A DNA stretch of 64,000 nucleotides, taken from Oligoflexia bacterium. Its GTDB lineage: Bacteria > Bdellovibrionota > UBA1018 > CAIMNF01. Both the position numbers and the translations under genes were made by a program. Positions 1 through 50,770 of this stretch are shown piece after piece; the first letter of the stretch is position 1; each line of letters starts with the position of its first letter. The stretch covers positions 6,498-70,497 of the forward strand of contig CAIMWN010000239.1 in NCBI GenBank assembly GCA_903845155.1. The letters run 5' to 3'. The notes under the pieces were generated by a model. It saw only the letters and a program-made list of their open reading frames with translations. It was not told the origin of the DNA and did not search any database.

Positions 1-279
1 AATGTCCTTTTCAATCACCTCAAGAGGATTGACGTAAGTACCTCCGTAAAACGTGGCGAGCTCTTTTCTCATTTTAATGATGTCAGGGTCTTCTTCAAGT
101 TTTGCGGCTGCAAAGGCATACATGATCACAAAAAATCCGAACAGGAGCGTCATCATGTCCGCGTAAGAAACGAGCCAAGGCTCTCCGTGGCCACCGTCAC
201 CATGGCCTTCATCATGGCTGCCATAGTGAAATGCTGGTTCTTCGTCTTGCCCGGATTCGTTTGGTGGCTGTTCAGACAT
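1..279 (-). CDS. motB: MotB-like stator protein, N-terminal part only. The gene starts at 279 and continues past the window start
   Basis: The reverse-strand translation is MSEQPPNESG...EPWLVSYADMMTLLFGFFVIMYAF. This has the MotB-type TM helix with the conserved Asp in the YADMMTLL motif. It lies 9 bp downstream of motA, and the C-terminus is outside the window. Confidence 0.65.
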   Translation of the reverse strand, partial: MSEQPPNESGQDEEPAFHYGSHDEGHGDGGHGEPWLVSYADMMTLLFGFFVIMYAFAAAKLEEDPDIIKMRKELATFYGGTYVNPLEVIEKDI

Positions 280-288
280 TCAACATTC

Positions 289-1083
289 TCACTTCGTCAT
301 CGCTTTCCAATCCAAACGTTCGTTTGGAAGTAGGTAGGAGTTCAACTCTTCCGCAAGTACGACTGGATTTTGCTTTTGCTGGATGAATCTAATTCCTTCG
401 ACAATAATGGTATTTTTTAGCTTTATTTTTTTGGCAATTTCTTGAAGGTGCTCGCCAATAGGAATAATAAATAAATTTGCAAGTGCGATACCATAGAGAG
501 TGGCCACTAACGCTACAGACATATGTGGTCCTACATGTTTTTCGGCACCGGGTTGACCCAATGAACCCAAAAGCAAAATCATCCCAGTCACTGCGCCCAT
601 GAGGCCCATCGCTGGAGGATACTTTCCACAGGATGCAAACATTTTGGCATCATCAGTATAGCGCTCGTACATGGTGGTTACTCTCGAATGTAAAACGCGA
701 AGTAGCTTATTAGGCTCAAGCACTTCGTCAGTGAGCGCCGTCATTGCTTCCTTCATGAATGGATCGCTACAGTTTTGGATCAAGGCATCCAGGTCGGGCG
801 AGCCGGAGCGATACGCTTCCGCTAAGGTCATGAGTTCCTGAATTATTTTTTTATTAATATCTTTTGGTACGGACGTTTTAAAAAGTCCGCGAAAAAAGAT
901 CATGAGCATTGAAGCTGCCCGAGGAAGTGAAAACGCTACCCCTACACAGGCAAGAGTCCCCCCAAGGACGATAGTGGCGCCGTGGAGGTCCAGCATTTTC
1001 ATAGGGTTCGGGTTTCCATAAACCATTGAAAAAACCATGATAAATGCTGCAAAAGCAATACCGCCTAAGTTAACTAGATTCAT
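289..1083 (-). CDS. motA: MotA/PomA-family proton-channel stator protein (MotA/TolQ/ExbB superfamily)
   Basis: 264 aa with 4 predicted TMs. The C-terminal TM pair, ...GLMGAVTGMILLLGSLG...VALVATLYGIALANLFIIPI, is typical of MotA/TolQ/ExbB. It sits immediately upstream of a MotB-like gene. Confidence 0.75.
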   Translation of the reverse strand: MNLVNLGGIAFAAFIMVFSMVYGNPNPMKMLDLHGATIVLGGTLACVGVAFSLPRAASMLMIFFRGLFKTSVPKDINKKIIQELMTLAEAYRSGSPDLDALIQNCSDPFMKEAMTALTDEVLEPNKLLRVLHSRVTTMYERYTDDAKMFASCGKYPPAMGLMGAVTGMILLLGSLGQPGAEKHVGPHMSVALVATLYGIALANLFIIPIGEHLQEIAKKIKLKNTIIVEGIRFIQQKQNPVVLAEELNSYLLPNERLDWKAMTK

Positions 1084-1131
1084 AGCCCAATTACCTCATA
1101 GGACTGAAGTGGGGTCAAGGATAAGTGATGC

Positions 1132-1767
1132 CTAAAAACTATAGATCATTCCCAAAAGTATGCGTTGTGTTTGTGCAGTTGCTGAAGCACCAGTAAACCC
1201 ATAAGCCATCCCCATTCCAAGCTGCGCATCGAATGCAATGGACTTAGACATTTGTCGGATGTAACCAACACAGAGGCTACCATCGAGCATATAACTTGTG
1301 GTTTCGAGTTGGGCGCCTAGTGTGGTCACGAGCCCGGTGGCAAATCCAGCGTCAAAGCCATAATAAAATCGACGCGCCGGAACCACTTCCACATCAAACC
1401 CCGACCCTGATACATGACTAATGAGACCGTTTGAATTCAGGAAATAATATCGTTTTCCCACCCCCATAAAAGTATAAACGGCTTTTCCTAATTTAGAGTC
1501 AATGGCAATAATTGCCCTGAATATATTCGACGAACGAGAGGAATTTAGGGTTTCATACTCTAAGTCAAGCGTGCTCGAAGAACTATAAGACTTTGACAAA
1601 CCACCACCCGAAATCGACATGCTTAAATCTCCTGTTCTCAGATGAAATTGGTGCGACTTAATTTCTTCTTCAGCTTGCGCTGGACGCAGGGACGCAAAGA
1701 GTGGAAAAATGAGAAACAAGAAGAGAAGTGATAAGGCATTATGCGGCTTTTTGTATATGATTTTCAC
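1132..1767 (-). CDS. hypothetical secreted protein, probably a small outer-membrane beta-barrel
   Basis: N-terminal signal peptide (LFLFLIFPLFASLRPAQA). Alternating hydrophobic pattern, Gly/Ser/Tyr rich, ends in ...GMIYSF (a C-terminal aromatic as in OMPs). Overlaps the upstream gene by 29 bp, so the start is uncertain. Confidence 0.4.
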   Translation of the reverse strand: MKIIYKKPHNALSLLFLFLIFPLFASLRPAQAEEEIKSHQFHLRTGDLSMSISGGGLSKSYSSSSTLDLEYETLNSSRSSNIFRAIIAIDSKLGKAVYTFMGVGKRYYFLNSNGLISHVSGSGFDVEVVPARRFYYGFDAGFATGLVTTLGAQLETTSYMLDGSLCVGYIRQMSKSIAFDAQLGMGMAYGFTGASATAQTQRILLGMIYSF

Positions 1768-3679
1768 CTGGTCCGCTTTGACGTATCCATTGTTGAATTA
1801 CTTCTAATGCCACATCCCTCACATGCTCGTCGGCTATCACAATAGAGCGTATGTTTTCCACAAATTCCTTTTGAAGAGCAGGCGCCGCTTTGGATATTTT
1901 CTTTTTGCGTAAATCATTGTTCCCGATTTGCTTTAATTCGTAGTCGATAATCTCGCGCACCTTACTGCCCTCTTTACCACAAACCTCTAAATAGAATTTT
2001 TGATTCTGTTCATTCATAGAAAAAATAAAGTCTGCCTTTTTAGCTGCAGTAAAGCGGTCGAGCACGGCCTTTAGGGTCGCAGCAGGCAGTTTGACGGCCA
2101 AGTGACTCGGAAATACTTTTGCTGCCGTGGAAAGAATCACTGCGGTCTCGCCTGCCTCCAGAAGCGCATTCCAAATCGACCGTTCTTTATTATCATCCAC
2201 AGTACGAAGCAGCTCTGTAATGTTTTCAACAAATGGAGCGCTTGATCTGGCAACTTGATTATTTTTAAATTCGTTAATTCTTTCCTTTAGTTCCATTCCC
2301 TTTTCGGCAAACTCTGTATCCGAGTATTTGATACTCATTAGGGTAATGTCGTCTGCCTTGTCCTGAGGAAGTAAAGAATAAATCCTGCTTACAATCGCAG
2401 TCGGTAAAAGGTTAATCAGTAAAGGAGAATACTCGGGATGTCCGCTCATCAATTCTACGCATTCTTTCAGCGAGAGTGATTGCAACAACTTCTTTAACTC
2501 GTGATCAGTAATCGGGTTCGGTATGAGCATCGACTCTACGATTTGTCTTGAGATGAAAGATTCAGCAACCCTTGCTTCACTATTGCTTGGTCCCGTCATT
2601 TTTTCACTTAAGACCGCTTTCCAAAGTTTTCTCTCCTCAAGGGTCAGTAGCGAGAACAATGACATGAGAGATTTTGAATCCAATACTTGCGGAAGCGTCA
2701 AGAGCGCCTCAAGCGGGCCGTTTTTCCCGGGATGTTGAATCCACGCGCGCACCATTGCAGCTGCATGATCTGCTTCGTGGTGGACGATATCTTGAAAGCG
2801 TTTAAAACCTGAATCGACGTTTTCCTTCTCTCCCCAGTCGGAATCATCTTGGAAGGAACCACTGATGGCTCCCGCTCCGGCAAAATCCTCTGTGGCGGCG
2901 ATCGCCTCTTCCGGTTCTTCTTTGTTCGATTTTTCTTCTTTAATTTTGTTCTCTTCGAGTATATTTCGCGCCTCTAATACAGATATCTTTTTCGTTTCGA
3001 TTTTTTTATATGAGGCGAGCACTTGCGTGCTCACCATGAATAGGAAAATTGATAAAATCAATGCCCCAAAGCTAAGTCCAATCACGTTTTTAAATTCTAC
3101 CAGCCACTTTTTCATCCCCCACGATTCATCTTCTTTAATCATTTTTGGGGAGTTAAACTCTTCAATGCTGACTGCGACTATCGCCTTAGGGGTAACCTTG
3201 GCCATTGCTTTCAATTGCTTTTCAATTTGTTCTTTGCTTGCATCCAACACGAATTTTGGCAGATAGGCATTCATGGTTACTTTTTGAATTTGATCAAAGA
3301 ACCCAGGCCCATCGGCCCCCTGTGCCTCTCTCCTCGAATTGCTCATTTGATCAAAAATGGGTACCGACAAATCAATTTTACCTAAGAAAACCTCATTTTC
3401 AGCATTGGTTTTGTTGTTATTTATCGCGGAGGTCTTTGACGCCGGAACTCTTTTATCCTTCATTGGCGGGATTAAAGTAATCGCTACCTGAACGCTGGAC
3501 GATTGGCCTTGTGAGTATGCAGCAAGTAAAGCCTTTGCTTTTTCGGCGAGAGAATTTTCTAAATTTACTTTTTGCCATTCCGGATTTTCAGTGCTGGAGA
3601 ACCCTTCAGCGTTGGCGACTGAGAGGGATCCATAGACCAGCAGTCCGAACACACATAAAATATTTGTAATTTTAATCAT
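1739..3679 (-). CDS. hypothetical single-pass membrane protein with a predicted periplasmic N-domain and a large cytoplasmic helical-repeat domain that looks FliG/MgtE-N-like
   Basis: 646 aa. Signal peptide with a VANA-EG cleavage-like site. One TM (GLSFGALILSIFLFMVSTQVL) followed by KK, so positive-inside. The C-terminal ~400 aa contain an acidic linker and helical repeats. The segment GHPEYSPLLINLLPTAIVSRIYSLLPQDKADDI resembles the FliG middle-domain EHPQ...L.L.L motif. This is an impression only and was not searched. Confidence 0.4.
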   Translation of the reverse strand: MIKITNILCVFGLLVYGSLSVANAEGFSSTENPEWQKVNLENSLAEKAKALLAAYSQGQSSSVQVAITLIPPMKDKRVPASKTSAINNNKTNAENEVFLGKIDLSVPIFDQMSNSRREAQGADGPGFFDQIQKVTMNAYLPKFVLDASKEQIEKQLKAMAKVTPKAIVAVSIEEFNSPKMIKEDESWGMKKWLVEFKNVIGLSFGALILSIFLFMVSTQVLASYKKIETKKISVLEARNILEENKIKEEKSNKEEPEEAIAATEDFAGAGAISGSFQDDSDWGEKENVDSGFKRFQDIVHHEADHAAAMVRAWIQHPGKNGPLEALLTLPQVLDSKSLMSLFSLLTLEERKLWKAVLSEKMTGPSNSEARVAESFISRQIVESMLIPNPITDHELKKLLQSLSLKECVELMSGHPEYSPLLINLLPTAIVSRIYSLLPQDKADDITLMSIKYSDTEFAEKGMELKERINEFKNNQVARSSAPFVENITELLRTVDDNKERSIWNALLEAGETAVILSTAAKVFPSHLAVKLPAATLKAVLDRFTAAKKADFIFSMNEQNQKFYLEVCGKEGSKVREIIDYELKQIGNNDLRKKKISKAAPALQKEFVENIRSIVIADEHVRDVALEVIQQWIRQSGPGENHIQKAA

Positions 3680-4356
3680 TTCTTATCCTCGCTAGTGGCC
3701 GGCGCAGCCTTAAGGGGTTCTGCTCGCTTAGATCCAACATTAATACCGAGTGATGACATTAAATGGTTTCTCATTCTTACCGCCTCAACATTTTTAGGAT
3801 TATAGCGGATTGAGGTTGAATAGGAATCAAGCGCCTGTTGCGGTTTCTTCTGTAGATAGTAGATTCCACCTTGAATTTCATAGAGGGCCGACAATTCTGG
3901 CGCTTCTTTTTGAATGCTCTCGGTAAGTTTCATGGCGTCTTCTAATCGTCCTACTCGCGCCAGACGTTGCGATTCAAAAAGACGATCAATCACCTTATTT
4001 AATTTTTCAATGTCTTCTAGTCCTGATGAGCGCTGAAGTTCAGCGGTCATGGTGATGTCCGCAGGCGCAAGATCAGTGACCATTGACTTCGATGGTACAA
4101 AACCATCTTTTCTGAACTCAAGCATGACTGGCCCAATCGTATTTGCTGCCTTCACTGCATCTTCTGCTGGAATCAAGAGTGGTGTAGTTCCAATTTTCTT
4201 AGGGTTCGCGCCGTCGAGCGAGGTGACGTAAACATCAGCGCCTGTTGGATTACTTTGAAGGTTGAGTGATGTACTGGACGCACATCCAAACAATGAGATC
4301 ATCATGGGTGTGACTGCCGAACATAATAAGTAGAGTCGTATTTTTGGTTTCATCAT
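3676..4356 (-). CDS. lipoprotein with a PEGA-like domain and a C-terminal TPR-like region
   Basis: Lipobox at ISLFGC-ASS. PEGA-like segment PTGADVYVTSLDGANPKKIGTTPL. The C-terminal ALYEIQGGIYYLQKKPQQALDSYSTSIRYNP looks like a TPR. Overlaps the next gene by 4 bp. Confidence 0.55.
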   Translation of the reverse strand: MMKPKIRLYLLCSAVTPMMISLFGCASSTSLNLQSNPTGADVYVTSLDGANPKKIGTTPLLIPAEDAVKAANTIGPVMLEFRKDGFVPSKSMVTDLAPADITMTAELQRSSGLEDIEKLNKVIDRLFESQRLARVGRLEDAMKLTESIQKEAPELSALYEIQGGIYYLQKKPQQALDSYSTSIRYNPKNVEAVRMRNHLMSSLGINVGSKRAEPLKAAPATSEDKK

Positions 4357-4571
4357 CGTTTAAGGGCCTCGCCCTACGTAACCTATCGACTTCTATTTAC
4401 ATTTTGTTTAATAAAAACAAAGAAGTCACTGGCTTGACGACTTCTTTAACGCACATTGTTGACGATCATGAGAAATTTGTTAATTATAACAATTTGTTAG
4501 CGTTTTTTATGAAATACCATCCGATCATTTCCATGGCCAAATTCCTCACTTTTCGGTACAGTTTCCCCATT

Positions 4572-5684
4572 ATGTTGAAACAAACTGCACTTCTCGCTGA
4601 GCACAAGAAGCTTGGCGGCAAACTCGTTGATTTTGGTGGCTGGGAACTTCCGGTGCAATACTCAGGCGTTCTCGCGGAGCACACAGCGGTAAGGACCGCC
4701 GCTGGCCTTTTCGATGTAAGCCACATGGGCGAAATTTTAGTCGAAGGTGATGGGGCACTTGATTTTGTGAATTACTTGGTCACGAACGACGTATCTACCC
4801 TCGCGGTCGAACAAGCCCAATACTCAGCACTTTGCAATCAGAACGGCGGAATAGTAGACGACCTAGTTGTTTATCGCTTGGGCGAAAAGAAATTTTTTCT
4901 AGTGGTGAATGCATCCAACACAGACAAAGATTTTGCCCACATTCAAACTATCTATTCTGGATACGACGGCACCAAACCCAAACTTTCAAATGTTTCCCCA
5001 CAATACTCACAGATCGCAATTCAAGGACCAAAATCTGAGCTCATTTTACAAAAATTAACTGAAACTAGATTAAATGAAATCAAAACCTACTGGTGCAAAG
5101 AGGGTAAAGTACTGAATATTCCTACCATCATTGCCAGAACAGGCTACACCGGCGAAGACGGGTTCGAAATTTATGTACCATGGCATGACGCCCCCACCAT
5201 TTGGGGCGCACTCCTCCAAACTGGCTCCCCAGATGGCTTGATCCCTTGTGGCCTTGGGGCGCGCGATACTTTGAGACTTGAAATGAAATATTCACTCTAT
5301 GGACATGAGTTGAGTGATGACACCAATCCACTTGAGGTGGGTTTGGGTTGGGTAACTAAGCTCAACAAGAAATCTGATTTTGTCGGCAAAGAGGCTATTT
5401 TAGCATTAAAAAATAAAGGCCAAACTAAATCATTAGTAGGCGTAAAGTCGCTCGGCCGAGGAATTCCTCGCCAAGGATATGAAGTCTACTCACATGACCA
5501 AAAGAAGAGAATTGGAGTCATTACCAGTGGCACCTCTTCTCCTTCACTCAAATACCCCATTGGTGTTGCCTTCATCGATAAAGAATTTGAAGCCGTAGGA
5601 ACTAAACTATTTGTAAAAGTGAGAGACGATTTTCACGAATTTGAAATCATTAAAACGCCGTTTTATAAAAAGGAGCAAGCATGA
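4572..5684 (+). CDS. gcvT: glycine cleavage system T protein (aminomethyltransferase)
   Basis: Translation from 4572 is MLKQTALLAEHKKLGGKLVDFGGWELPVQYSG...AVRTAAGLFDVSHMGEI, which aligns with the GcvT N-terminus. The ORF track begins at 4344 but the upstream 76 codons have no homology, so the start is set by similarity. Confidence 0.88.
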   Translation: MLKQTALLAEHKKLGGKLVDFGGWELPVQYSGVLAEHTAVRTAAGLFDVSHMGEILVEGDGALDFVNYLVTNDVSTLAVEQAQYSALCNQNGGIVDDLVVYRLGEKKFFLVVNASNTDKDFAHIQTIYSGYDGTKPKLSNVSPQYSQIAIQGPKSELILQKLTETRLNEIKTYWCKEGKVLNIPTIIARTGYTGEDGFEIYVPWHDAPTIWGALLQTGSPDGLIPCGLGARDTLRLEMKYSLYGHELSDDTNPLEVGLGWVTKLNKKSDFVGKEAILALKNKGQTKSLVGVKSLGRGIPRQGYEVYSHDQKKRIGVITSGTSSPSLKYPIGVAFIDKEFEAVGTKLFVKVRDDFHEFEIIKTPFYKKEQA

Positions 5685-6067
5685 GTTACCCTAGCCAATT
5701 TAAATATACAAAAGAGCACGAGTGGGCAGAATTACTTTCCGACACTCAAGTCAGAGTCGGTATCACTTTGCATGCACAGAGCAGCTTGGGTGATATTGTT
5801 TATCTTGATCTTCCAAAGGTAGGCCGTGAATTGAAGGCCAATGAGACATTTGGCGTTGTGGAAAGCATTAAGGCTGTGTCTGATCTTTACTCACCACTCG
5901 CAGGTAAAGTAGTCCAAGCAAATACTGACCTCACTCAGGATCCAGGTAAAATTAATTTAACCCCACACACGGAGTGGATGATTGTAATTGAAGCACAAGA
6001 TGCTAAAGCACAATTCAATGCACTCATGGGTGCGGACGAATATACCGCTTACGTAAAGAACTCTTAG
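5681..6067 (+). CDS. gcvH: glycine cleavage system H protein (lipoyl carrier)
   Basis: 128 aa. Lipoyl-lysine motif ETFGVVESIKAVSDLYSPLAGKV. 4-bp overlap with gcvT. Confidence 0.9.
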   Translation: MSYPSQFKYTKEHEWAELLSDTQVRVGITLHAQSSLGDIVYLDLPKVGRELKANETFGVVESIKAVSDLYSPLAGKVVQANTDLTQDPGKINLTPHTEWMIVIEAQDAKAQFNALMGADEYTAYVKNS

Positions 6068-6972
6068 AAAGAGTAGCGGCCACTAAGATTAATACCGAGG
6101 TGTGAATACCCCATGGCATTTGCATATTGTGAACCAGCCACGTTGACGCTCGTAGAGTTTGATTCAGCAATCGTCATCGTATTAAAACTCATCAGGGTGT
6201 AACTCAAACTCAGCGTGGCAGAAAAGTGTTTTGAAAAATCCTTTACCGCACCAACCTCAACCATTTCTCCGATTCCTGACGAAGAATAGGTCCAGTTATA
6301 CGGCGACTCTAATCCCACACCAGTAAGCCTGTTATATCCAATAGACGCTCCCACAAAGGGAGTCATCCATTTTTTGGAAAAATAATATTGATACCCTAGG
6401 TGAAAGTCGTAAATTTTTTCGGTGAGCGTACCGTTATAAGTGATAATTTGAGTGAGTGAGGTTGGTTGACTACCCGAAAAATATCCCATCTCGAAATATA
6501 ATGCACTTTTCTGATTCAACCATTTTCCAAGGCGAAGTGAAAACCCAAGCCCCGGGCTATACTTCCCCGTCGAATTAGTCACTATTCCAGCGGTAGTAGA
6601 AAGGCCCGATGTACCGCTACCATTCATCATGATGTCACTCAAGCGTAGATCTACGAAATAATGTTTCGCTATGGTACTCTCGGGAGCGCCCTTGTTCGTT
6701 TCTGATTTTAAAATAAAACAATCTGTTTTTGCAGCAAACCAAGACCCTTTAAAAAAGAAATTAGAATATTCCTTATTGGACTTAGACGGAATCACCACGA
6801 GTGACTCCCCTTGGACTTCGTCACCGGTTACCACTTCCCACTTTTTATTTACATTCTTTTTGAGCGTACAGTTCGCATTTACTGCAAAACTGTAAAGATC
6901 AGCCGCCTTTGCATTAGACTGAAAGAACATTACTGACAGAAGCAATGGTAAAATAAATGGCGTTTTTTTCAT
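6064..6972 (-). CDS. hypothetical outer-membrane beta-barrel protein
   Basis: Signal peptide at [23 protein letters not shown]. Ser/Gly/Tyr-rich amphipathic strands and a C-terminal ...GRYSF. The start is trimmed to the MKK at 6972. 4-bp overlap with gcvP. Confidence 0.45.
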
Positions 6973-9866
6973 CCGTTTTGATAACTTTCTATAGGTGGAC
7001 ACGAACATATTAAATTCCTATCTCCATAAACATTATCTATTCTGGCGACTGAAGCCCAGAATTTTTTTTCACGCACCCAGGGGCGAGGATATGCGGCTTG
7101 CTCGCGAGAATAAGGATACATCCATTCTGTCGAGGTAACCATTTCAGCCGTATGAGGGGCATTCTTCAGAACATTGTTCTTTGGATCTGCCTTTCCAACC
7201 CTTACCGCCTCAATTTCTTCACGAATCGCAATCATGGCTTCAATGAATCGGTCTAATTCTGCTTTCGATTCACTTTCCGTCGGTTCAATCATTAAGGTTC
7301 CCGAAACAGGAAAAGAAATAGTAGGTGCGTGAAATCCATAATCAATGAGTCTTTTTGCAATATCTTCTACTTCAATGCCTGTTGCAGCTTTTAACGGCCT
7401 CACATCGAGAATACACTCGTGAGCAACCATGCCCATTTCTCCTCGATAGAGTACCGGGAAATGTGGTTCCAGTTTTTTCGCTATATAATTTGCGTTCAGA
7501 ATTGCCGTTTGCGTCGCGCGAATGAGGCCCTCTGATCCCATCAATTTCATGTAAGTCCATGAGATGGGAAGAATACTAGCACTTCCCCACGGAGCGCCCG
7601 ATACGGCGCCGCTTGTTTTCAAAAACACATGACCCGGTAAAAATGGAGCAAGTTGTTTTTTCACGCCGATTGGTCCCATTCCTGGGCCCCCTCCACCGTG
7701 CGGGATACAAAATGTTTTATGTAAATTTAAGTGACAAACATCGGGACCAAACTCTCCTGGCTTGCATAAACCAATTTGAGCATTCATGTTTGCTCCATCC
7801 ATATAAACCTGTCCGCCATTTGCATGAACAATGTCGCAAATTTCGCGAATGCGTGTTTCAAACACTCCGTGAGTTGACGGATAGGTGACCATCAGGCTCG
7901 CCAAATCCTTTGCATGCTCGGCAGCAAGGCGCTTTAAGTCGGGAATATCTACATTGCCATCCTTATCACACTCAACAACCACTACTTTGAATCCCGCCAT
8001 TGCAGCTGAAGCGGGATTCGTTCCATGCGCTGATTTAGGAATTAAACATACGTTCCGATGATGATCACCACGAGACGCGTGGTATGCACGAATCGTGAGC
8101 AAGCCTGTATATTCCCCTTGTGAGCCGGCGTTGGGCTGAAGTGACACGGCATCAAAACCGGTTACATCTGCAAGCATCGACTCCAGTTCAGAAAAGAGTT
8201 CAAGATAACCTGTAATCTGATCCAGTGGTGCTGCTGGATGAAGTTTCGAAAACTCTGGCCAGGTCACCGGAATCATTTCCGTGGTTGCATTGAGTTTCAT
8301 GGTGCAAGACCCGAGCGGAATCATCGAAAAGTTCAATGATAAATCTTTTCTCTCAAGCGAAGACATGTAGCGAAGCATTTCGTGCTCTGACTGGTGTTGG
8401 TGAAAAACGGGATGAGTTAAAAATTCATCTTCACGAATTAATGATTCGGGAAGCATTACGTTCAAACCCTTCTGAATCCATTCCTTCAGTTGCGTAATTT
8501 TACCGCCCGATAAAACTGAAATAACTTGAGTGACTTCGGCTTCCGTAGTCGCTTCGTCAAATGCGATTGAAAGAATCGACCCTCCCAAGTACCTAATGTT
8601 CATTTGCTGTTTTTCGAACGCAGCGACCAGTGCTGTTGCTGCAGCGTCACTTTTTACATCAAAAGAAATGGTGTCGAAAAAAGTGGGAGTAAGAAGACTA
8701 AATCCCAGTTCCTTTACTGCATGTGCAATTAAGGTAGTAAAACCATGTGTTTTTTTTGCAATTTGTGTGAGTCCCTTCGGTCCATGGTAAATCGCGTACA
8801 TCGACGCCATGACTGCAAGTAAAACTTGTGAAGTACAAATGTTACTCGTCGCCTTTTCTCTGCGAATATGCTGTTCACGGGTTTGAAGTGCAAGGCGGAT
8901 TGCAGGTTTTCCTTTAGCATCTCTAGAAAGTCCAACGATTCTACCTGGCATTTGTCTCTTGTACTCATCTTTACAAGACAGATAAGCAGCACTCGGACCA
9001 CCCAACCCCATCGGCACTCCAAAACGTTGAAAACTTCCAACGGCAACATCCGCCCCCAAGGCTCCCGGGCTTTTTAAAAGAGTTAAGGAGAGTGGATCAG
9101 CTGCGAGCGTAACGATCAGGCCTTTCTCGTGTGCCATTTTAATCCAAGACTCAATCCGGGCGTCTACCGCCCCATGAGTGTCAGGGTATTGAAAAATTGC
9201 GCCAAACATTTTTTCGGTCGGAGAAAAGGTGTCATAAGAAAATTTTTGCACTTGCAGGCCAAGTGGCTTTGCTCGGGTTTCAATTACATCTATATTTTGG
9301 GGATGCAAGCGATCAGACACATAGAAAATATTTCTTTCTGACGAACCCTTGAGCGCCATCGACATTGCCATCGCTTCGGCACACGCAGTAGCTTCATCTA
9401 ACAGAGATGCATTCGCAACCGGCAAACCAGTAAGATCGATCGTCAGCGTTTGAAAATTAAGAAGAGCCTCAAGTCGACCTTGGGCGATCTCGGCTTGATA
9501 GGGAGTATATTGAGTATACCAACCTGGGTTTTCTAAAACATTTCTTAAGATTACGGTCGGAGTGATGGTATCCGAATATCCCATTCCTAAAAGCGAGCGG
9601 TAAACTTTATTCTTCGATGCAATTTTTTTCAATTCAACAAGCGCTTCATTCTCGCTGGAATATTTTGGAACTTGAATTTTATTTTTTACTCGAATGCTAT
9701 CTGGAATTGTTTTCGCGATCAACTCGTCAAGCGAATTCAGGTCAAGCACATTTAACATTTCCTTCTCGTCTTTCTGGCGAGGTCCAATATGGCGCATTGA
9801 AAATGAATGAAAATCTTGTAATTGAATTTTTTCTAGAATTTCGGCTCTTTTGGAATTGTTTTGCAT
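6969..9866 (-). CDS. gcvP: glycine dehydrogenase (decarboxylating), single-chain P protein
   Basis: 965 aa. N-terminal ...RHIGP as in GcvP. A PLP-dependent fold with two aminotransferase-like halves. The length matches single-chain GcvP. Confidence 0.9.
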
Positions 9867-31148: not shown

Positions 31149-33049
31149 AATATTTGTCTGCTAACTGGCGCATTCGCCTTCTTATATTTACTCTTAATGA
31201 AAATCATCAGTGTGGCTACCGCAGCTGGTGTCACCCCTTGAACCCGAGATGCTTGTCCCAAGTTTTCCGGCCTTACTTCTTTGAGCTTTCCTCTAATCTC
31301 GTTCGAGATACCGGGGATGGCTGCGTAGTCCAATTCACCGGGAATAATCAGGTGCTCAGCATTCCGAACCCCCTGAAGCAGGTCCATGTCCCTTTGAATA
31401 TAACCCTCATACTTAATCTGAATATCAATTTGCTCGAATACATCAGCATCCTCCAACAGGGTAGTGTAACCAAGTGACTTGAGCGTAACGAAATTCACTT
31501 CTGGCCGACGTAACAAAGCTGCCGCCGAAACTCTATCTTTAAGGGCAGAGATTCCTACCGATTCAAAACTTCTATTGGTCTCTTCAGTGGGATAAAAAAA
31601 AGTAGTGCTCATCTCACTTCTCAATTTCTCAATTGCTTCTTGTTTCCAGAAAAAGCGGGCCTTTGAAAACTCATCCAATAGCCCAATATCAATTGCCTTA
31701 GGAGAAAGCCTTAAATCAGCATTGTCTTCTCTTTGTAGCAAACGATATTCAGCTCTTGAAGTGAACATACGATAAGGCTCATCAGACCCCTTTAAGATCA
31801 AATCATCAATCATTACACCTATATAGCCATCAAGCCTGGTCAACGAGAACTCGGGCTTCTCGAGTGCTTTATGCGCCGCATTAATGCCGGCAACAATTCC
31901 CTGCCCCGCCGCCTCCTCGTATCCTGAGGTTCCATTTACCTGACCTGCGAAGAACAATCCTGGTACATCTTTACACTCAAGTGTTCTCTTGAGTTGTCTT
32001 GCGTCCACGGAATCGTATTCAACCGCATAGGCGTAACGAATAAATTTCGCCTTTTCTAGTCCGGGAATAGTGTGAACAAACTCTTCTTGGATCTCTTTTG
32101 GTAAAGATGTTGAAATTCCGTTCACATAAATTTCATCTACATCAAGACCTTCGGGCTCTAAAAAAAGTTGGTGCTGGGTCTTGTCCTTAAAACGAGTAAT
32201 TTTATCTTCTATCGAAGGACAGTAACGTGGACCAATCCCAGTGATTGCTCCGCTATACATTGCTGAAAGACCAATATTCTTTTCAATAACCGCATGAGTC
32301 TTCTCATTGGTGTACGTTAAAAAACAATTCACCTGAGGCAAAAACGGGTACGGACTTGGACGATGATAAAATGAAAAAGGAATGAGCAAATCATCACCCG
32401 GCTGAGGAATGGTAACTGACCAATCGATAGAGTCTTTATGCAAGCGCGGTGGAGTACCGGTTTTGAGCCGACGCAACTTCAATCCCAACAACAACAAATC
32501 ATCACTCAGTGTTTTCGAAGATTTATCTCCTAGCCTTCCACCCTCCTCCTGCTCAAAGCCTCGGTGCATGATCGCTTTCAAAAAAGTACCGGACGTAATG
32601 ACAACAGACGTTGCGGTAATTTGCCCGCCAGGTATTTTCACACCCACTACTCGACTTCCATCAATCATCAGTCCTAAAACTTCCCCTTCAATAATGGTGA
32701 GATTGGGTACTTTTGAGAGCAAAATTTGCATGTTTTTAGCATATTTCAGCTTATCACATTGCGCGCGCGAGGACCGGACTGCGGGCCCCTTGCTTGAATT
32801 AAGTCGTCTAAACTGAATAGTAGATTGATCAGTAATCTGACCCATTATCCCACCCAGTGCATCGACCTCTTTTACCAACTGTCCTTTTGCAAGACCACCA
32901 ATGGCGGGATTGCAAGACATGCTCCCAATTTTAGAGACATCAAGAGTGATCATCGCGGTCCGAGCGCCAAGACGAGCCGACGCGTGGGCTGCCTCACATC
33001 CGGCATGCCCTCCGCCAATTACCAGTACATCATAATTTATCGTAGTCAT
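31145..33049 (-). CDS. mnmG: tRNA uridine 5-carboxymethylaminomethyl modification enzyme MnmG (GidA)
   Basis: FAD motif DVLVIGGGHAGCEAA. 634 aa. Confidence 0.95.
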   Translation of the reverse strand: MTTINYDVLVIGGGHAGCEAAHASARLGARTAMITLDVSKIGSMSCNPAIGGLAKGQLVKEVDALGGIMGQITDQSTIQFRRLNSSKGPAVRSSRAQCDKLKYAKNMQILLSKVPNLTIIEGEVLGLMIDGSRVVGVKIPGGQITATSVVITSGTFLKAIMHRGFEQEEGGRLGDKSSKTLSDDLLLLGLKLRRLKTGTPPRLHKDSIDWSVTIPQPGDDLLIPFSFYHRPSPYPFLPQVNCFLTYTNEKTHAVIEKNIGLSAMYSGAITGIGPRYCPSIEDKITRFKDKTQHQLFLEPEGLDVDEIYVNGISTSLPKEIQEEFVHTIPGLEKAKFIRYAYAVEYDSVDARQLKRTLECKDVPGLFFAGQVNGTSGYEEAAGQGIVAGINAAHKALEKPEFSLTRLDGYIGVMIDDLILKGSDEPYRMFTSRAEYRLLQREDNADLRLSPKAIDIGLLDEFSKARFFWKQEAIEKLRSEMSTTFFYPTEETNRSFESVGISALKDRVSAAALLRRPEVNFVTLKSLGYTTLLEDADVFEQIDIQIKYEGYIQRDMDLLQGVRNAEHLIIPGELDYAAIPGISNEIRGKLKEVRPENLGQASRVQGVTPAAVATLMIFIKSKYKKANAPVSRQIL

Positions 33050-40170: not shown

Positions 40171-41634
40171 TCATTTACCTATACAAAAGTCTGAAAAAAT
40201 TTTACCGAGCACATCATCTGGCAACGTTTCGCCAATCAAAGGACCAAGCTCATTCATGCCGTGTCTCACATCTGTCGCAAATAATACTAAATCAGAAGCC
40301 TCATTCATTGCTCTCTTCAAACATTCTAATGATTTCTTTACTGCCTGTACATGCTCAAATTGAGTGAGAAGCACCTCTCCTGGACTTCGTTCTAAAAACC
40401 CTTCAGCGAGCGCAGTCATTCTTTGGGCCACTTCGGTGATCCCCTCTAAATTCACTGATGAAACTGAATACCACTGATCTATTTTCAGAACTGTATTTAA
40501 ACTCGAGATTGCATTATTCAATTCCTCAGTTTCAGTTTCGAAAAGAAGATCCTTTTTGGTAGTCACTCCAATAAACCTTTTGCGGCCCAATTCGGTTTCG
40601 GTGGCAAGTTTTTCTAAAAATCTCGTCGCTTCTGCGACATTGGGGTCCACACCATCAATGATAACTAAAATTAAGTCTGCGTCTTTCGCAGCTTTTAAGG
40701 AACGTTCAATACCAATTTCCTCAATCTCATCGCCGCTTTTACGAAGTCCTGCTGTATCTGACAATTTAAAGGAAACATACCCGTGCTCCCCCCGAAGATT
40801 CAATTTCTCTCTCACTACATCTCTCGTGGTGCCCGGAATATTTGAAACAATTGAACGATCCTCTCCCAGTAAAGAGTTAAAAAAGGAAGATTTTCCAGCA
40901 TTCGGAAGGCCAAAAATGGAAACGGGAATGCCGTCTAAAAACCGTTTTCCTCGATCAAAACTTCCCATCAAATGATTCAACAATTTAATAATTTCAATGA
41001 GTCTCATTTTTAACCTTGGAAGACTGACTTCGTCGATGTCTTGGTCTGAGAAATCGATACCCACCTCAGAAAGGGTCACTAGCTGCATCAGATCCGTTCG
41101 AATCTGGTCGATGAGTACATGTTGAGAGCCGGATAGTTTCTCAATCGCTAGATCTAAGGCGAAATCGTTTTCCGCAGCAATCAACTCTTTTACAGCTTCT
41201 GCCTGCGATAACATCATTTTTCCGTTTTTAACCGCCCTAAATGAAAACTCACCAGGAAGGGCCAAACGTGCTTCATTTGAAAACATCAAATCGAGTACTT
41301 TTTGCGCGATAATCGAACTTCCATGAAGGAAAAACTCAACCACGTCTTCACCAGTAAAGGATCTGGGATTAAAAAATGGAATCAGGATGGCATCGTCAAT
41401 GCGTTTTCCTTGGTCGTCATGAATCCACACCCGTGTAGCTCTCCGATCCAAATCCTTAATTAGAACAATCCCAGTAATCTTTTCAGTAATCTTAAATGCA
41501 CTCTCCCCCGAGAGTCTTAAAATACAAATCGCCCCACCCGTTGGAGAACAGAGTGCGGCGATTGTTTTATCTGATAAATATCCAGCAGGATCTAAGTGTT
41601 TTTTCTTAGAAGCTGGTTGCAATTCCTGAGACAT
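40171..41634 (-). CDS. mnmE: tRNA modification GTPase MnmE (TrmE)
   Basis: G-domain motifs GLPNAGKSS, DTAG, TKKD. C-terminal ...CIGK. 487 aa. Confidence 0.9.
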   Translation of the reverse strand: MSQELQPASKKKHLDPAGYLSDKTIAALCSPTGGAICILRLSGESAFKITEKITGIVLIKDLDRRATRVWIHDDQGKRIDDAILIPFFNPRSFTGEDVVEFFLHGSSIIAQKVLDLMFSNEARLALPGEFSFRAVKNGKMMLSQAEAVKELIAAENDFALDLAIEKLSGSQHVLIDQIRTDLMQLVTLSEVGIDFSDQDIDEVSLPRLKMRLIEIIKLLNHLMGSFDRGKRFLDGIPVSIFGLPNAGKSSFFNSLLGEDRSIVSNIPGTTRDVVREKLNLRGEHGYVSFKLSDTAGLRKSGDEIEEIGIERSLKAAKDADLILVIIDGVDPNVAEATRFLEKLATETELGRKRFIGVTTKKDLLFETETEELNNAISSLNTVLKIDQWYSVSSVNLEGITEVAQRMTALAEGFLERSPGEVLLTQFEHVQAVKKSLECLKRAMNEASDLVLFATDVRHGMNELGPLIGETLPDDVLGKIFSDFCIGK

Positions 41635-43081
41635 TTCCAGGAACTCCTAGTTTTTTATTTAAGTACTGTTGCTGAAGTACACTGCAAAACGCATTTACGA
41701 ACATATACACACAAAGACCCGCAGGCGTGGTGAGCATGAATCCACCGAACATCAGGGGCATGAATTGCATCACTTTCCGTTGTGCAGGATCCATCCCTGG
41801 CGCCGGAGGGGTTAGTTTTTGCTGTGCGAACATCACCAAGGTCATGAGAACCGGGGTGATAAAATAAGGATCCTTAGCCGACAAATCATGAATCCAAAAA
41901 GAATCAGAAATGAATGGAGCTCGGTAAAGTTCAACCGCTGCATAAAGTACACTATAGAGTGCGAAGAAAATTGGCATTTGAAGAAGCATTGGCAGACAAC
42001 CCGCCATCGGATTATATCCAGAACCCTTCATGAGCACCATCATTTCGCGATTCAGAGCCGCTTTGTCATCCTTGTGTTTATCTTGAAGTGCTTTCATTTT
42101 TGGCTGAAACTCAGCCATTTTTCTAGCGCCCTTCATGCTCTTCAAGACGAGTGGGAAAGTGAGAATTTTAATGATAACGGTCAGGATAATAATGGCAATT
42201 CCATAATTATGAACAAACCCAAAAATATATTTGAGCGCCCAAAGAATAGGATAAGCGATGAAGGTGAAAAAGCCTAAATTAACGGTCGTATCTAAGCTTT
42301 GATCAATGGCGCGTAGTACATCCAGTTTTTTGGGAACAAATACCACCTTAAATTTCAAATTCAATTGTTGGTTCACTACTGGAAACTGAAGTGATGCCTG
42401 CGCGTTTTGAGGGCCGGTACTTTGCACAAGAAGCTTCTCTGCGGTGATTCCATCTGGAATCACTGTAAAAATAAAATATCTGCTACCTGCACCCATCCAT
42501 TTGACTGGGGTAGAAACCTCTGTCGCATCAATATTTTTATCTACAAGATGACGTTCAATTTTGCTGTTGGTAAAATAAAAGAGTTCACGATCTCTCGCCT
42601 CTGGATCGTCCTTGCCGCCCTTAGATACGAGATTTAAAAAGGCTTTTGCGGGCGCTTTTTGTTTGAATTGAATAGCAACATTCACCGAAACGGTATCGCC
42701 TTGAAGCTCATACGTGCGGTGGTAATCCACATTCGCATCACTATATCGCCAGTCATAAGTAGAGGCGTTTGTGTTTTGAAGCGAATTAGCTACTTGGCCG
42801 TTCAAATAAGTGAAGTCACCTCCTGAGAAAGTCATGAGGAGTCCACTGTCAAAATTGGTAATGCTTTTTAAATCAATTCCTGTTGGTTCATTCATGGACC
42901 ATTTGCGAATCCAGAATGACCCATTGTCTATTTCCACAGCGGAGTGAGGAAGTGCAACAGAGTATTTTGAGGTTGAAGCGACCGCTGATCCAATCACGGC
43001 ATCTTCCGCGAATGAATTCACATTTAATCCGAAGAATAAAAGTGTCGATAATAAAATGGGTGTCAAAGCTGTGTTTTTCAT
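41606..43081 (-). CDS. yidC: membrane protein insertase YidC
   Basis: The C-terminal 5-TM core is conserved (...[13 protein letters not shown]...). The start is probably MKNTALTPI at 43081; the ORF track begins at 43135. Confidence 0.85.
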
Positions 43082-43308
43082 ATGGGGTCGTACCCTCCTG
43101 ATTTTGAGAACGGATGACATCTTAAAATGCGCCAAATACTTTTAATGCTTCCACGAATGAGTCCATGTTTTTCAATCGCCTGTTCACAATAACAAGAACA
43201 GGTGGGTTCAAACTTACATCCGTTATATGGATTTCCACTAAATGTACTAGAAAATCCATGAAAAAGGGGAGAAATTAATTTTTGATATAATTTAAAAAAT
43301 ATTCGCAT
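43078..43308 (-). CDS. yidD: membrane protein insertion efficiency factor YidD
   Basis: 76 aa with the conserved [15 protein letters not shown] / GGYDPI motifs. Confidence 0.8.
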
Positions 43309-44104: not shown

Positions 44105-45580
44105 ATGAACCATACAAATCTTTGGGCAACAACGTATAGTCATATACTTCAAAACCATCAGAATCCAAATGAGGTTAAGTTCTGGCTAGATGCGCTAAAA
44201 TGGGACAAAGCCGAGCGCCTTGGTCCGGGAAGAGTGAGGGTACTCCTCTCCGCCCCAAATAATTACTACGCAAATTATATTAACTCCATTTTTAGAAGTG
44301 AAATTGAAAGTGCCGTTACCTATGTACTTGGAGAAAGCTGTGAAGTTTCGATAGAAGTGTCCCAAGCACAAGTTGCTGATGAAGTTGCGGCATCCAAGCT
44401 AAATACTTCACCTACAGTAGCAGTTTCTATTCCCACCATTGGAGTGAGCAATCCTCTTGCGCCACCACGATTAACTGACTTCACTCATCCTTCAATTGAA
44501 ATGACGACTCCTTCACGGTCGCCCATTAAAACAGGGGGCTTTAAAACCAATTCCTCTCAAGACCTTTTTGATCATATCGATACTCACCTCACTTTTGATA
44601 ACTATATAGTAGGACCTTCAAATCAATTTGCTTACGCATCTGCATTTTCTACTGCTGAGAATCCAGCAGTTCAATTTAACCCGCTCTTTATTTACGGTCC
44701 TCCTGCTGTGGGTAAAACCCACCTGCTCCATGCCATTGGGAACCACCTAAAAAAGAAGAATCCACATATCCGTGCATACTTTGTCTCCGCTGAGAAATTT
44801 GTAAATGAATTTATTGAAAGCATACAACACAAAAACCCAGGCGATTTTAGGGCTAAATACCGCGAAAATGTAGATTTACTCTTAATAGATGATGTCCAAT
44901 TTATTGTGGGAAAAGATCGTTCTGAAGAAGAATTTATCCATACTTTTAATACCCTACATAGTTTGAAAAAAATGATTGTCCTTACTTCAGATAAAGCACC
45001 CAAAGATATCGATGGGCTTGAGGAGAGAATTCGCACACGTTTTGAAATGGGTTTGGTCGCAGATATTCGGGCTCCAGAAATTGAAACTAGAATTGCAATT
45101 TTGAAAGCCAAAGCGGAATCAGATGATATTTATTTACCAGACGAAGTCGCTACTTTTTTAGGAACCTACATCAAGGATACAGTTCGTAATCTGCATGGAT
45201 CACTCGTGAAGCTCCAACAATATGCATCGCTCACTGGTTCTGAAATCACGCTCGACCTTGCTAAACAAGTTCTTCAGGCTTCCATTCCTGAAGAGGGACA
45301 AGAGTTTCATGTGGAATCCATCCTGACCGGCGTGTGTAAGCATTTTAATATCAAACTAAAAGATATTAAGGGTGTTTCAAGAGCGAAAATTTACTCAGAA
45401 CCCAGACAAATTGCAATGTACCTCATTCGTCACTATGCCCATCTAGGGTTCAGAGAAATCGGTCTCATTTTTGGCAAGGATCACTCCACTGCAGTTCATG
45501 CTCATAAGAAAATACAAATGGAACTGGAAACGGACCTCGGCCTCAAACGGAACGTTGAGACCATCAGCGGTCAACTTTAG
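44105..45580 (+). CDS. dnaA: chromosomal replication initiator DnaA
   Basis: AAA+ Walker A GPPAVGKTHLLHAIGN. C-terminal DNA-binding domain ...PRQIAMYLIRHYAHLGFREIGLIFGKDHSTAVHAHKKI. Confidence 0.95.
   Translation: MNHTNLWATTYSHILQNHQNPNEVKFWLDALKWDKAERLGPGRVRVLLSAPNNYYANYINSIFRSEIESAVTYVLGESCEVSIEVSQAQVADEVAASKLNTSPTVAVSIPTIGVSNPLAPPRLTDFTHPSIEMTTPSRSPIKTGGFKTNSSQDLFDHIDTHLTFDNYIVGPSNQFAYASAFSTAENPAVQFNPLFIYGPPAVGKTHLLHAIGNHLKKKNPHIRAYFVSAEKFVNEFIESIQHKNPGDFRAKYRENVDLLLIDDVQFIVGKDRSEEEFIHTFNTLHSLKKMIVLTSDKAPKDIDGLEERIRTRFEMGLVADIRAPEIETRIAILKAKAESDDIYLPDEVATFLGTYIKDTVRNLHGSLVKLQQYASLTGSEITLDLAKQVLQASIPEEGQEFHVESILTGVCKHFNIKLKDIKGVSRAKIYSEPRQIAMYLIRHYAHLGFREIGLIFGKDHSTAVHAHKKIQMELETDLGLKRNVETISGQL

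Positions 45581-47174: not shown

Positions 47175-50770
<3,596 letters not shown>

Follow-up and report, generated by a model that had tools for sequence, protein, structure and literature searches.

To our knowledge, the generation of torque between FliG and MotA is known only from flagella, whose motor core comprises the FliF MS-ring (about 34 subunits, with a beta-collar), FliG and the MotA5B2 stator. In flagella, RBM1 and RBM2 of FliF, the region homologous to SctJ, surround the export gate. Fusions of FliF to FliG have been engineered in Salmonella as well as in Vibrio, as laboratory constructs that contain full-length FliF and sit within a complete flagellum. The Vibrio constructs, in which the FliF tail is followed by the FliG N-domain, assemble into MS-rings (8z4d/8z4g; PMC11481574), so that a fused architecture is compatible with ring formation. 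The sole natural FliF-FliG fusion that we found in the literature is that of the Chlamydiaceae, a protein of about 330 residues combining RBM2, one RBM-like domain and the FliG M region only, which has no linked MotAB and has been proposed to work with the injectisome (Bergeron 2016, PMC4768692). Here we analyse a stretch of 64,000 nucleotides from an Oligoflexia bacterium (the window; GenBank assembly GCA_903845155.1, contig CAIMWN010000239.1, positions 6,498 to 70,497 of the forward strand), in which a protein of 646 residues is encoded together with MotA, MotB, a lipoprotein and a small predicted outer-membrane barrel. Sequence profiles and a structural model identify this protein as a probable natural mini-FliF, made up of the C-terminal half of FliF (RBM3, the second transmembrane helix TM2, and the tail), fused to a complete FliG. 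The lipoprotein, fusion protein, barrel, MotA and MotB form a module that is conserved in the Bdellovibrionota, a lineage of predatory bacteria, despite repeated rearrangement, and that occurs without genes for a flagellar export apparatus, rod, hook, filament or switch, both in the window and in the flanks of 87 related loci.

The module occupies positions 1 to 4356 of the window, where five co-directional open reading frames (ORFs) lie on the minus strand. An earlier note on this DNA had given the same five genes and coordinates, all of which were confirmed. The features, in window coordinates, are:

3676 to 4356, minus strand: lipoprotein of 226 residues with lipobox LFGC, a PEGA-like N-domain and about three TPR repeats (ORF; TPR_2/TPR_1 at E ~3e-4)
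1739 to 3679, minus strand: mini-FliF/FliG fusion protein of 646 residues, candidate rotor subunit (family profile against the PDB, AlphaFold2, Foldseek)
3155 to 3583, minus strand: predicted RBM3-like periplasmic domain of the fusion protein, residues 33-175 (model secondary structure, HMMER, Foldseek, hhalign)
3005 to 3085, minus strand: transmembrane helix of the fusion protein, residues 199-225, the putative equivalent of FliF TM2 (hydrophobic segment in 136/136 family members, aligned to FliF 466-559)
2735 to 2809, minus strand: helices of the fusion protein resembling FliF's C-terminal tail, its FliG-binding segment, residues 291-315, with F295 and W313 (HMMER alignment to Salmonella FliF)
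1775 to 2716, minus strand: FliG-like N, M and C domains of the fusion protein, residues ~322-635 (Foldseek 8umx_B, HMMER 3ajc, Pfam MgtE_N)
1907 to 1969, minus strand: charged segment resembling the FliG torque helix, residues 571-591, GSKVREIIDYELKQIGNNDLR (hhalign to E. coli FliG, family conservation)
1132 to 1767, minus strand: small predicted outer-membrane beta-barrel of 211 residues with a GTG start, signal peptide and C-terminal ...GMIYSF (weak DUF2715/OMP_b-brl matches)
289 to 1083, minus strand: MotA, flagellar-type stator A subunit, 264 residues (Pfam MotA_ExbB, NCBIfam)
1 to 279, minus strand: N-terminal 93 residues of MotB, cut by the window edge, with the plug and a transmembrane helix carrying the channel aspartate (SYADMMTLL, D41)

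Successive genes are joined by a 4-bp overlap (lipoprotein and fusion gene, read from the sequence as ATGA), a 29-bp overlap (fusion gene and barrel), a 48-bp gap (barrel and MotA) and a 9-bp gap (MotA and MotB). The GTG start of the barrel gene is the one that yields a signal peptide, and it gives a length that fits homologues of 205-206 residues. The 4-bp to 48-bp junctions that the earlier note had described are thus as stated, whereas its view of the operon as ending with five genes does not hold. An exact-protein look-up with MotA found three near-identical metagenomic scaffolds (L001-L003; ENA GROS21), of which L001 has a single residue in the MotB fragment that is not as in the window. 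This scaffold carries, 39 bp past MotB and beyond the window edge, a sixth gene, for a protein of 348 residues with an N-terminal hydrophobic segment and HEAT repeats (HEAT_2, 6.8e-11). It is followed by three unknown genes on the other strand and then by a 4299-residue protein with Big_1 and Invasin_D3 matches, while upstream the operon is bordered by gcvT-gcvH on the opposite strand. The operon therefore has six genes and does not mark the margin of a flagellar or Tol-Pal cluster.

The earlier note had likened part of the cytoplasmic domain of the 646-residue protein to the FliG/MgtE-N fold. A profile of 136 members of the fusion family (A2), searched against all PDB sequences, bears this out and ranks FliG ahead of MgtE: Thermotoga FliG (3ajc, M and C domains) was matched over profile positions 401-595 at E=1.7e-9 and Salmonella FliG (8umx) at E=2.4e-5, with MgtE (2oux) at E=4.6e-3. 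The engineered Vibrio FliF-FliG fusion (8z4d) was matched at E=3e-7 in four collinear stretches covering the start of RBM3, TM2 with the tail, and FliG. FliF itself was found with E-values that are modest, namely 3.5e-4 for Salmonella FliF (6scn; profile 222-318 on FliF 466-559, corresponding to TM2 and the FliG-binding tail) and 9e-4 for Vibrio FliF (8z5s; profile 37-78 on FliF 268-309, the start of RBM3). The motif that had been picked out earlier, GHPEYSPLLINLLP, aligns to the EHPQ(R) segment of FliG. The likeness extends further than the earlier note had seen, spanning the N, M and C domains of FliG together with the FliF tail and an RBM3-like domain.

Structural modelling points the same way. 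An AlphaFold2 model of the monomer, built from the 136-member alignment, had a mean predicted local distance difference test score (pLDDT) of 84.2, with 433 residues at or above 90; with only 4 sequences the score was 45 and the model unusable. When the better model was compared with the PDB by Foldseek, the FliG fold was recovered for the cytoplasmic domain and the twelve best matches were all FliG, including full-length FliG from Salmonella C-ring structures and from Aquifex at probability 1.00 (8umx_B, aligned over 328 columns of the 328-residue protein, 3hjl and 9n49_G). These were followed by FliF MS-ring/RBM3 entries (probability 0.93-0.98) and then by PrgK and EscJ. Low TM-scores in this comparison are attributable to a differing relative placement of the domains in the multi-domain model. 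Identity to FliG is only about 12-17%, and single sequences consequently fall short of the Pfam FliG models: among 72 family members MgtE_N was matched in 35 (best E=2.1e-7), and FliG_M and FliG_N in one each at E ~5e-3. The window protein itself has a sub-threshold MgtE_N match at residues 486-569 (E=0.0033, 18.4 bits against a cut-off of 25.9).

The predicted order of parts in the 646-residue protein is a signal peptide or first transmembrane helix (1-24), the RBM3-like domain, the transmembrane helix at 199-225, an acidic linker, helices resembling the FliF tail, and the N, M and C domains of FliG. Across the family an N-terminal hydrophobic segment is present in 128/136 members and the internal transmembrane segment in all 136, followed by about 410 residues, and the mean count of lysine plus arginine around the internal segment is 3.4 after it vs 2.2 before. 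A periplasmic N-domain with one transmembrane helix, as the earlier note had it, is thus a topology common to the family, although the domain is not anonymous and appears to be FliF-RBM3-like. The periplasmic part comprises about 165 residues and in the AlphaFold2 model folds as one alpha-beta-beta-alpha-beta unit (residues 33-175), which hhalign also aligned to E. coli FliF 236-270. Between the first and second beta strands the RBM3-like domain carries a 60-residue insert of low pLDDT (residues 70-130) with a conserved motif around K101/G103/P107, at what we take to be the position where FliF RBM3 bears its beta-collar. RBM1 and RBM2 of FliF are absent from the 646-residue protein, which has a single periplasmic unit and no Pfam YscJ_FliF match.

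The fusion family is sizeable and its members carry the database name ‘hypothetical protein’. When 1.84 billion cluster representatives (50% identity) were scanned exhaustively by HMMER, with an alignment of the closest homologues as query, 334 proteins were matched at E<=1e-3, of which 163 reached E<=1e-30; nearly all have 600-750 residues. A word-indexed search with the 646-residue protein found only three homologues, of about 50% identity, and its repetition with the 136-sequence profile added no further relatives. A member from the Bdellovibrionaceae used as query retrieved only ‘hypothetical proteins’ of metagenome-assembled genomes (MAGs) and no protein of B. bacteriovorus HD100, and a genome scan with a fusion alignment (A1) matched patterns and found no relatives.

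Conservation within the family falls on residues that matter in the flagellar motor. In flagella the partner of MotA R90 is FliG D289, and that of MotA E98 is FliG R281 (PMC7564593; PMC12505986). Aligned to E. coli FliG by hhalign, the family profile places K573 on R281, E581 on D289 and R591 on R297, with FliG D288 falling on the hydrophobic Y580. In the 136 sequences, whose mean column identity is 18%, position 581 is acidic in 99% and E576 in 98%, whereas R575 is basic in 87% and K573 in 80%. W313 of the FliF-tail-like helix is present in 134/136 members and F295 in 116/136, P524, in the FliG MFxF region, in 136/136, and K101 of the periplasmic insert in 134/136. The FliM-binding EHPQR motif is not conserved, the aligned segment being GHPEY in the window and variable across the 136 members.

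The stator proteins are likewise of flagellar type, with Pfam matches to MotA_ExbB (E=6.5e-23) and MotB_plug (E=2.1e-15). The NCBIfam MotA/MotP/PomA models align with MotA over its entire length and give it 118-128 bits, below their equivalog cut-offs of 237-394. MotA scores 23.6 bits against TolQ (cut-off 221) and 13.9 against ExbB (cut-off 135); we read it as a diverged member of the flagellar-type group. In 70 fusion-linked MotAs the two prolines equivalent to P173 and P222 of E. coli, here P157 and P208, never vary. R92, equated with E. coli R90 by motif position only, is basic in 96% of them, and E89 is acidic in 97%. MotB is 264 residues long on L001, where it has an OmpA domain (2.9e-13), and its D41 in SYADMMTLL aligns by motif with E. 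coli D32. MotA and MotB retain the catalytic residues, the plug and the peptidoglycan-binding domain, and the conserved residues of all three proteins indicate that what ion conduction and a charged interface between rotor and stator require has been kept and what switching requires has not.

Surveying gene neighbourhoods across the phylum showed how widely this arrangement recurs. One genome per GTDB species was scanned with a MotA alignment, the best 80 loci were taken, and genes were counted with hidden Markov models built for the module families, the fusion gene being counted within 10 kb of MotA. All 80 loci are labelled Bdellovibrionota, a few MAGs having vaguer or discordant labels, and they include Bdellovibrionales, Pseudobdellovibrionaceae, Bacteriovoracaceae, Halobacteriovoraceae, Oligoflexales and Silvanigrellaceae; the nearest has 83% MotA identity. 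The fusion gene is present in 65/80, those without it being mostly on short contigs, and all five core genes are present in 47/80, in about 20 different orders and orientations. A gene set that recurs in dozens of diverged genomes in so many orders is arranged far beyond chance. The three closest relatives share the same six families in the order X-MotA-MotB-lipoprotein-fusion-barrel-HEAT, with MotA 84% identical to that of the window and the fusion protein only 50%. In distant members (L010, L096 and L097, at about 20% identity) the lipoprotein, barrel, fusion, MotA and MotB genes are still together. One MAG carries two modules (L015 and L025) and, besides them, a third MotAB (L090), UBA3083 has both a fusion-linked (L080) and a fusion-free MotAB (L065), and a MAG assigned to Bacteriovorax stolpii has the cluster as well (L014). 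In L009 barrel, lipoprotein and fusion genes occur with no MotAB within 10 kb.

In 52 loci the lipoprotein gene immediately precedes the fusion gene on the same strand, most often with a 4-bp overlap, an arrangement that argues for co-translation and a physical complex. Of the two domains named in the earlier note for this PEGA/TPR lipoprotein, TPR is found in 34/39 family members and weakly in the window, and PEGA in only 3/39 of the family (best E=6.7e-5) and not in the window copy. Barrel homologues stand next to the fusion gene in 57-61 loci; the assignment draws on the signal peptide, the C-terminal ...IYSF and weak matches of the window protein to OMP_b-brl/DUF2715, and the family as a whole gives only weak OMP_b-brl, DUF2715 and DUF3575 matches. 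The HEAT gene is present in a subset of 13-19 loci and its family has two invariant cysteines, C270 and C344, which we read as a periplasmic disulfide. When profiles of the lipoprotein, barrel and HEAT families were searched against the PDB, nothing beyond generic TPR/HEAT designs was matched.

That no flagellar genes lie nearby, as the earlier note had remarked, holds across the related loci. A phmmer search of all ORFs in the window and in the 87 loci (~1.3 Mb), with 39 flagellar and chemotaxis proteins of E. coli as queries, revealed no rod, hook, ring, export, switch or filament protein, and no FliM or FliN homologue. Matches were limited to ATP-synthase subunits (similar to FliI), a few receivers of the CheY type, one methyl-accepting chemotaxis protein and one FliL-like ORF. 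Nor does the operon belong to a larger flagellar or Tol-Pal locus just outside the window, given the HEAT gene, unknown genes and giant lipoprotein downstream, the gcv genes upstream and the TolQ score of MotA; there is no TolA/TonB-like gene in the operon. A TonB_2 protein is encoded about 6 kb away, beyond the gcv genes.

Set against the flagellar core, the module shares an RBM3-type domain, TM2, the FliF tail and the three FliG domains, the charges of the torque helix, the MotA prolines and R92, and the plug, aspartate and OmpA domain of MotB. It differs in that its predicted rotor is one polypeptide rather than two, has no RBM1 or RBM2 and no conserved EHPQR, and occurs without FliM/FliN and without export gate, rod, hook or filament genes nearby, its partners instead being a lipoprotein of the PEGA/TPR kind, the small outer-membrane barrel and a HEAT protein. 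The chlamydial protein resembles it as a natural fusion of a shortened FliF with FliG-like sequence outside a complete flagellum; unlike that protein, the one described here has RBM3, a whole FliG and dedicated stator genes. With the engineered Vibrio constructs it has in common the order of FliF tail and FliG N-domain.

From these features we consider it on balance probable that the cluster is a self-contained, ion-driven rotor-stator module built from flagellar-motor parts and coupled to the outer membrane. The earlier note had already suggested a trans-envelope machine powered by the proton-motive force, a reading that our analysis supports. The fusion protein would oligomerise through its RBM domain into an inner-membrane ring with one FliG-like unit per subunit, and peptidoglycan-anchored MotA5B2 units, driven by a flow of H+ or Na+, would push on the charged helix and turn the ring. 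The absence of FliM/FliN and the degenerate EHPQR motif suggest that there is no CheY-type switching, so rotation would be unswitched. On its periplasmic face, through the insert carrying K101, the ring may engage the PEGA/TPR lipoprotein, the small barrel and, in some lineages, the HEAT protein, and this contact would carry work to the outer membrane.

As to what such a machine might move, the best candidate loads would be the giant proteins with immunoglobulin (Ig) or fn3 repeats encoded next to this MotAB clade, whose displacement could serve surface adhesin movement or gliding. ORFs of at least 1000 residues occur in 30/72 fusion loci, 11 of them no more than 150 bp from a core gene, and all the giant proteins and the 633-638-residue fn3 proteins inspected begin with lipoprotein signal peptides (lipoboxes). 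On L001 the 4299-residue lipoprotein (15253-20795, ~2.5 kb past the HEAT gene; lipobox VTSC) has Big_1/Invasin_D3 repeats, is rich in T, S, A and G, and is syntenic with homologues of 5066 and more than 773 residues in L004 and L005. MotAB of L096, a locus that has the fusion, is flanked by an fn3 pair that recurs beside MotAB in L088 and L065, which have no fusion within 10 kb. The association of the MotAB clade with giant lipoproteins suggests that these are a load. That a stand-alone envelope motor moves or tensions giant outer-membrane Ig/fn3 lipoproteins, and is the missing motor for gliding or surface adhesion in the Bdellovibrionota, is a proposal that we put forward tentatively and regard as rather doubtful. 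As cargo specific to the fusion protein, giant adhesins were considered and the idea is weakened by their presence in 6/15 fusion-free against 30/72 fusion loci.

L088 (Halobacteriovorax sp. CON-3), L065, L060, L066, L072, L076 and L078 form a fusion-free MotAB sub-clade, with no fusion gene within 10 kb. In it the MotAB genes diverge from genes for a 633-residue and a ~1720-residue fn3 lipoprotein, and a 190-residue membrane protein follows MotB; in L096 the fn3 pair and a 186-residue protein also flank MotAB, and the fusion cluster is present.

Several observations weigh against an independent motor. We infer ring formation, rotation and the contacts with lipoprotein and barrel from sequence and from a model that is of a monomer. 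In L008 lipoprotein and fusion genes occur without MotAB, on a contig of 13 kb. In a rough neighbour-joining tree a fusion-free MotA sub-clade is nested among the fusion-linked MotAs; this sub-clade may be the flagellar stator of Bacteriovoracia, and the intermingling means that the MotAB of the module could also serve a flagellum. The giant ORFs are as common in loci without the fusion as beside it, so that the link is to the MotAB clade and not specific to the fusion. Moreover, Morehouse is said to have found in 2011 that all three MotAB pairs of B. bacteriovorus contribute to swimming. On a separate point, epibiotic predators are described as being without motAB1 and motAB2 (bioRxiv 10.1101/2025.02.19.638989). 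In B. bacteriovorus HD100 the G256V change in bd0149 has been linked to Type II host-independent growth and biofilm formation (PMC11323537); the gene is uncharacterised and close by numbering to motAB1 (bd0144/5), and this region is a possible homologue of the module.

These bacteria have sheathed polar flagella, and the module might be thought an accessory or alternative part of the flagellar motor, an extra or alternative ring at the flagellar base served by the same stators, with the lipoprotein and barrel acting as stator scaffolds in the periplasm and outer membrane in the manner of PflA/PflB, MotX/MotY or FlgP. MotA and MotB are clearly flagellar-type, the fusion-linked and fusion-free MotAs of the phylum are intermingled, L035 has a FliL-like ORF some 5 kb away from the core, and TPR proteins and lipoproteins are known flagellar scaffolds. 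MotE/FlgY, which have an MgtE_N domain, partner with TPR proteins (PMC13023049). We nonetheless think an accessory flagellar ring unlikely. No flagellar structural or export gene was found in the ~1.3 Mb around the 87 loci, the module brings its own stator genes and occurs twice in one MAG (L015 and L025), and a membrane-ring domain with FliF tail and complete FliG would make a rotor in its own right, without RBM1/RBM2, which house the export gate. Furthermore, Halobacteriovorax sp. CON-3 has a MotAB of the same clade that lacks a fusion gene in the surrounding 10 kb, and H. marinus SJ reportedly bears a flagellum and has just one motAB pair (PMC3526173).

A second alternative accepts a contact between the FliG-like domain and MotA and denies the rotation. 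MotAB might be a proton-motive-force-dependent energiser or mechanosensor in the manner of Tol-Pal/TonB, or the docking might ‘park’ or brake the stator, with conformational work or a signal passing to the outer-membrane lipoprotein and barrel or to signalling proteins. Free rotation is indeed hard to picture if a lipoprotein fastens the ring to the outer membrane and MotB is at the same time anchored to peptidoglycan, and the conserved charges would suit binding as well as torque. Possible signalling partners exist: a gene for a HAMP-SpoIIE (PP2C) phosphatase is present in 20 loci, overlapping motB in Oligoflexales, and a family resembling FecR by the look of its sequence, with no Pfam match, occurs in 15. 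On the other side, RBM domains build rings, and the parts of FliF that have been kept are those giving a 1:1 S-ring/FliG rotor; the MotB plug and peptidoglycan-binding domain are kept as in torque-generating stators; and MotA5B2 units are rotary by structure (PMC13023049, citing Deme 2020 and Santiveri 2020). A static or signalling role thus strikes us as improbable.

Membership of the FlgY/FlbB/MotE (E-ring) group, whose periplasmic MgtE_N head encircles the MS-ring, is suggested by the fact that MgtE_N is the sole Pfam domain found in single sequences (35/72). MgtE_N is the hallmark by which FlgY homologues are found, and these pair with TPR proteins, so that an MgtE_N/ARM-like fold and a TPR association are shared; the same source describes FlgY/FlbB as short flagellar proteins built of an N-terminal anchor with a long helix and a single head domain in the periplasm (PMC13023049). 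The 646-residue protein differs from them in its ARM-like region of ~320 residues, which follows a second membrane segment on the lysine/arginine-rich and hence presumably cytoplasmic side and matches full-length FliG rather than a single head, and in its N-terminal domain, which matches FliF RBM3. Since, moreover, no FlbB or FlgY chain was among the PDB matches in HMMER or Foldseek, we consider an E-ring protein very improbable.

A Zorya-like anti-phage, Tol-Pal, ExbBD-TonB or Agl-Glt type system with a MotAB-like proton channel might be proposed from the match of MotB to PADLOC ZorB models (best 1.9e-20), a generic similarity that arises because ZorB is a MotB homologue, and from the TPR lipoproteins and small outer-membrane barrels that the Glt gliding machinery also has. 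It can be set aside as scarcely credible: PADLOC gave no ZorA match for MotA, no matches for the other operon proteins and no ZorC/D-like proteins, the TolQ and ExbB scores are far below their cut-offs (23.6 against 221 and 13.9 against 135 bits), the MotB plug and OmpA domain are of flagellar type whereas Agl motors are of the TolQR class (PMC13104615), and the cluster lies in the core chromosome, ~40 kb from dnaA.

Returning to the rotor-stator reading, we note some further comparable systems. Salmonella SPI-4 encodes SiiAB, a MotAB-like proton channel, beside the giant Ig-repeat adhesin SiiE; SiiAB works with type I secretion and has no FliG/FliF-like partner, and SiiE is not a lipoprotein. 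The GldLM motor of the Bacteroidota type IX secretion system, with its SprB adhesin, and Myxococcus Agl-Glt are possible analogues as 5:2 inner-membrane motors driven by the proton-motive force and coupled across the periplasm to outer-membrane lipoproteins or barrels and to giant or lipoprotein adhesins. GldLM and the TolQR-like AglRQS are other motor families, in which no FliG/FliF-like rotor is known, and the gliding machinery of Bdellovibrio is called unidentified in a 2026 review (PMC13104615).

Our search of the full-text literature on FliG-like proteins, non-flagellar MotAB, Bdellovibrio stators, gliding and cryo-electron tomography, with subscription-only texts outside its scope, found no description of the fusion family. 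We read the locus as the principle of the flagellar rotor and stator set in a new architecture and context, and see a real chance that it is a new kind of envelope machine, although we infer the functional part, a rotary machine that possibly serves gliding. Such a motor might be a present-day analogue of a pre-secretory proto-flagellar motor, or else one that has been radically simplified. If the locus is such a machine, the flagellar rotor would for the first time be seen at work outside flagella, the mechanics of rotor and stator could be studied in a naturally minimal system, and there would be a new data point on how the flagellar motor was assembled or dismantled in evolution. The cluster and its neighbouring giant lipoproteins are in any case a concrete candidate that can be tested genetically in cultivable relatives, and even as an accessory ring of the flagellum it would add a new component to the motor of sheathed flagella.

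Other genes recur around the module. The HAMP-SpoIIE (PP2C) phosphatase found in 20 module loci is a membrane protein (in L050 at 3007-4821); in the Oligoflexales loci L019-L024, L030 and L042 its gene overlaps the motB stop, and motB is split from motA in a divergent operon. The fusion protein of Oligoflexales is longer (760-866 residues) and more diverged. Further recurrent accessory genes encode a 350-residue membrane protein (15 loci) and a 500-residue putative outer-membrane protein (13 loci), alongside the giant ORFs. On L001 two genes on the minus strand form a conserved neighbour pair. One (14214-15026) encodes a soluble protein of 256-270 residues whose N-terminus is weakly FliF-tail-like (hhalign E=0.0034, probability 9.5%), FliG entries being matched at E 0.8-3.5; the other (13787-14197) encodes a membrane protein of 136 residues here, and of 256-306 residues with a weak OmpA-like C-domain in relatives.

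The remainder of the window includes the origin region, with mnmG/gidA (31145-33049, minus), yidC (41606-43135, minus), dnaA (44105-45580, plus), gyrB (48356-50770, plus) and gyrA (51837-54335, plus), which places the module in the core chromosome and not on a mobile element. An Rfam scan of positions 1-5000 gave no match, a repeat search found only short chance pairs, and promoter and terminator scans stayed at the level of shuffled sequence. Between gcvH and gcvP, overlapping the 3' end of gcvP by ~40 nt, a gene at 6064-7008 (minus) encodes a protein of 314 residues with a signal peptide and C-terminal ...GRYSF that is likely an outer-membrane barrel; it has no Pfam match and is not homologous to the 304-326-residue X protein encoded ahead of MotA in relatives. 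A 772-residue ORF at 19716-22034 (minus) has no Pfam match at E<=1e-5, and a 790-residue protein at 13743-16115 (plus) has an N-terminal half corresponding to a LuxC-type acyl-CoA reductase.

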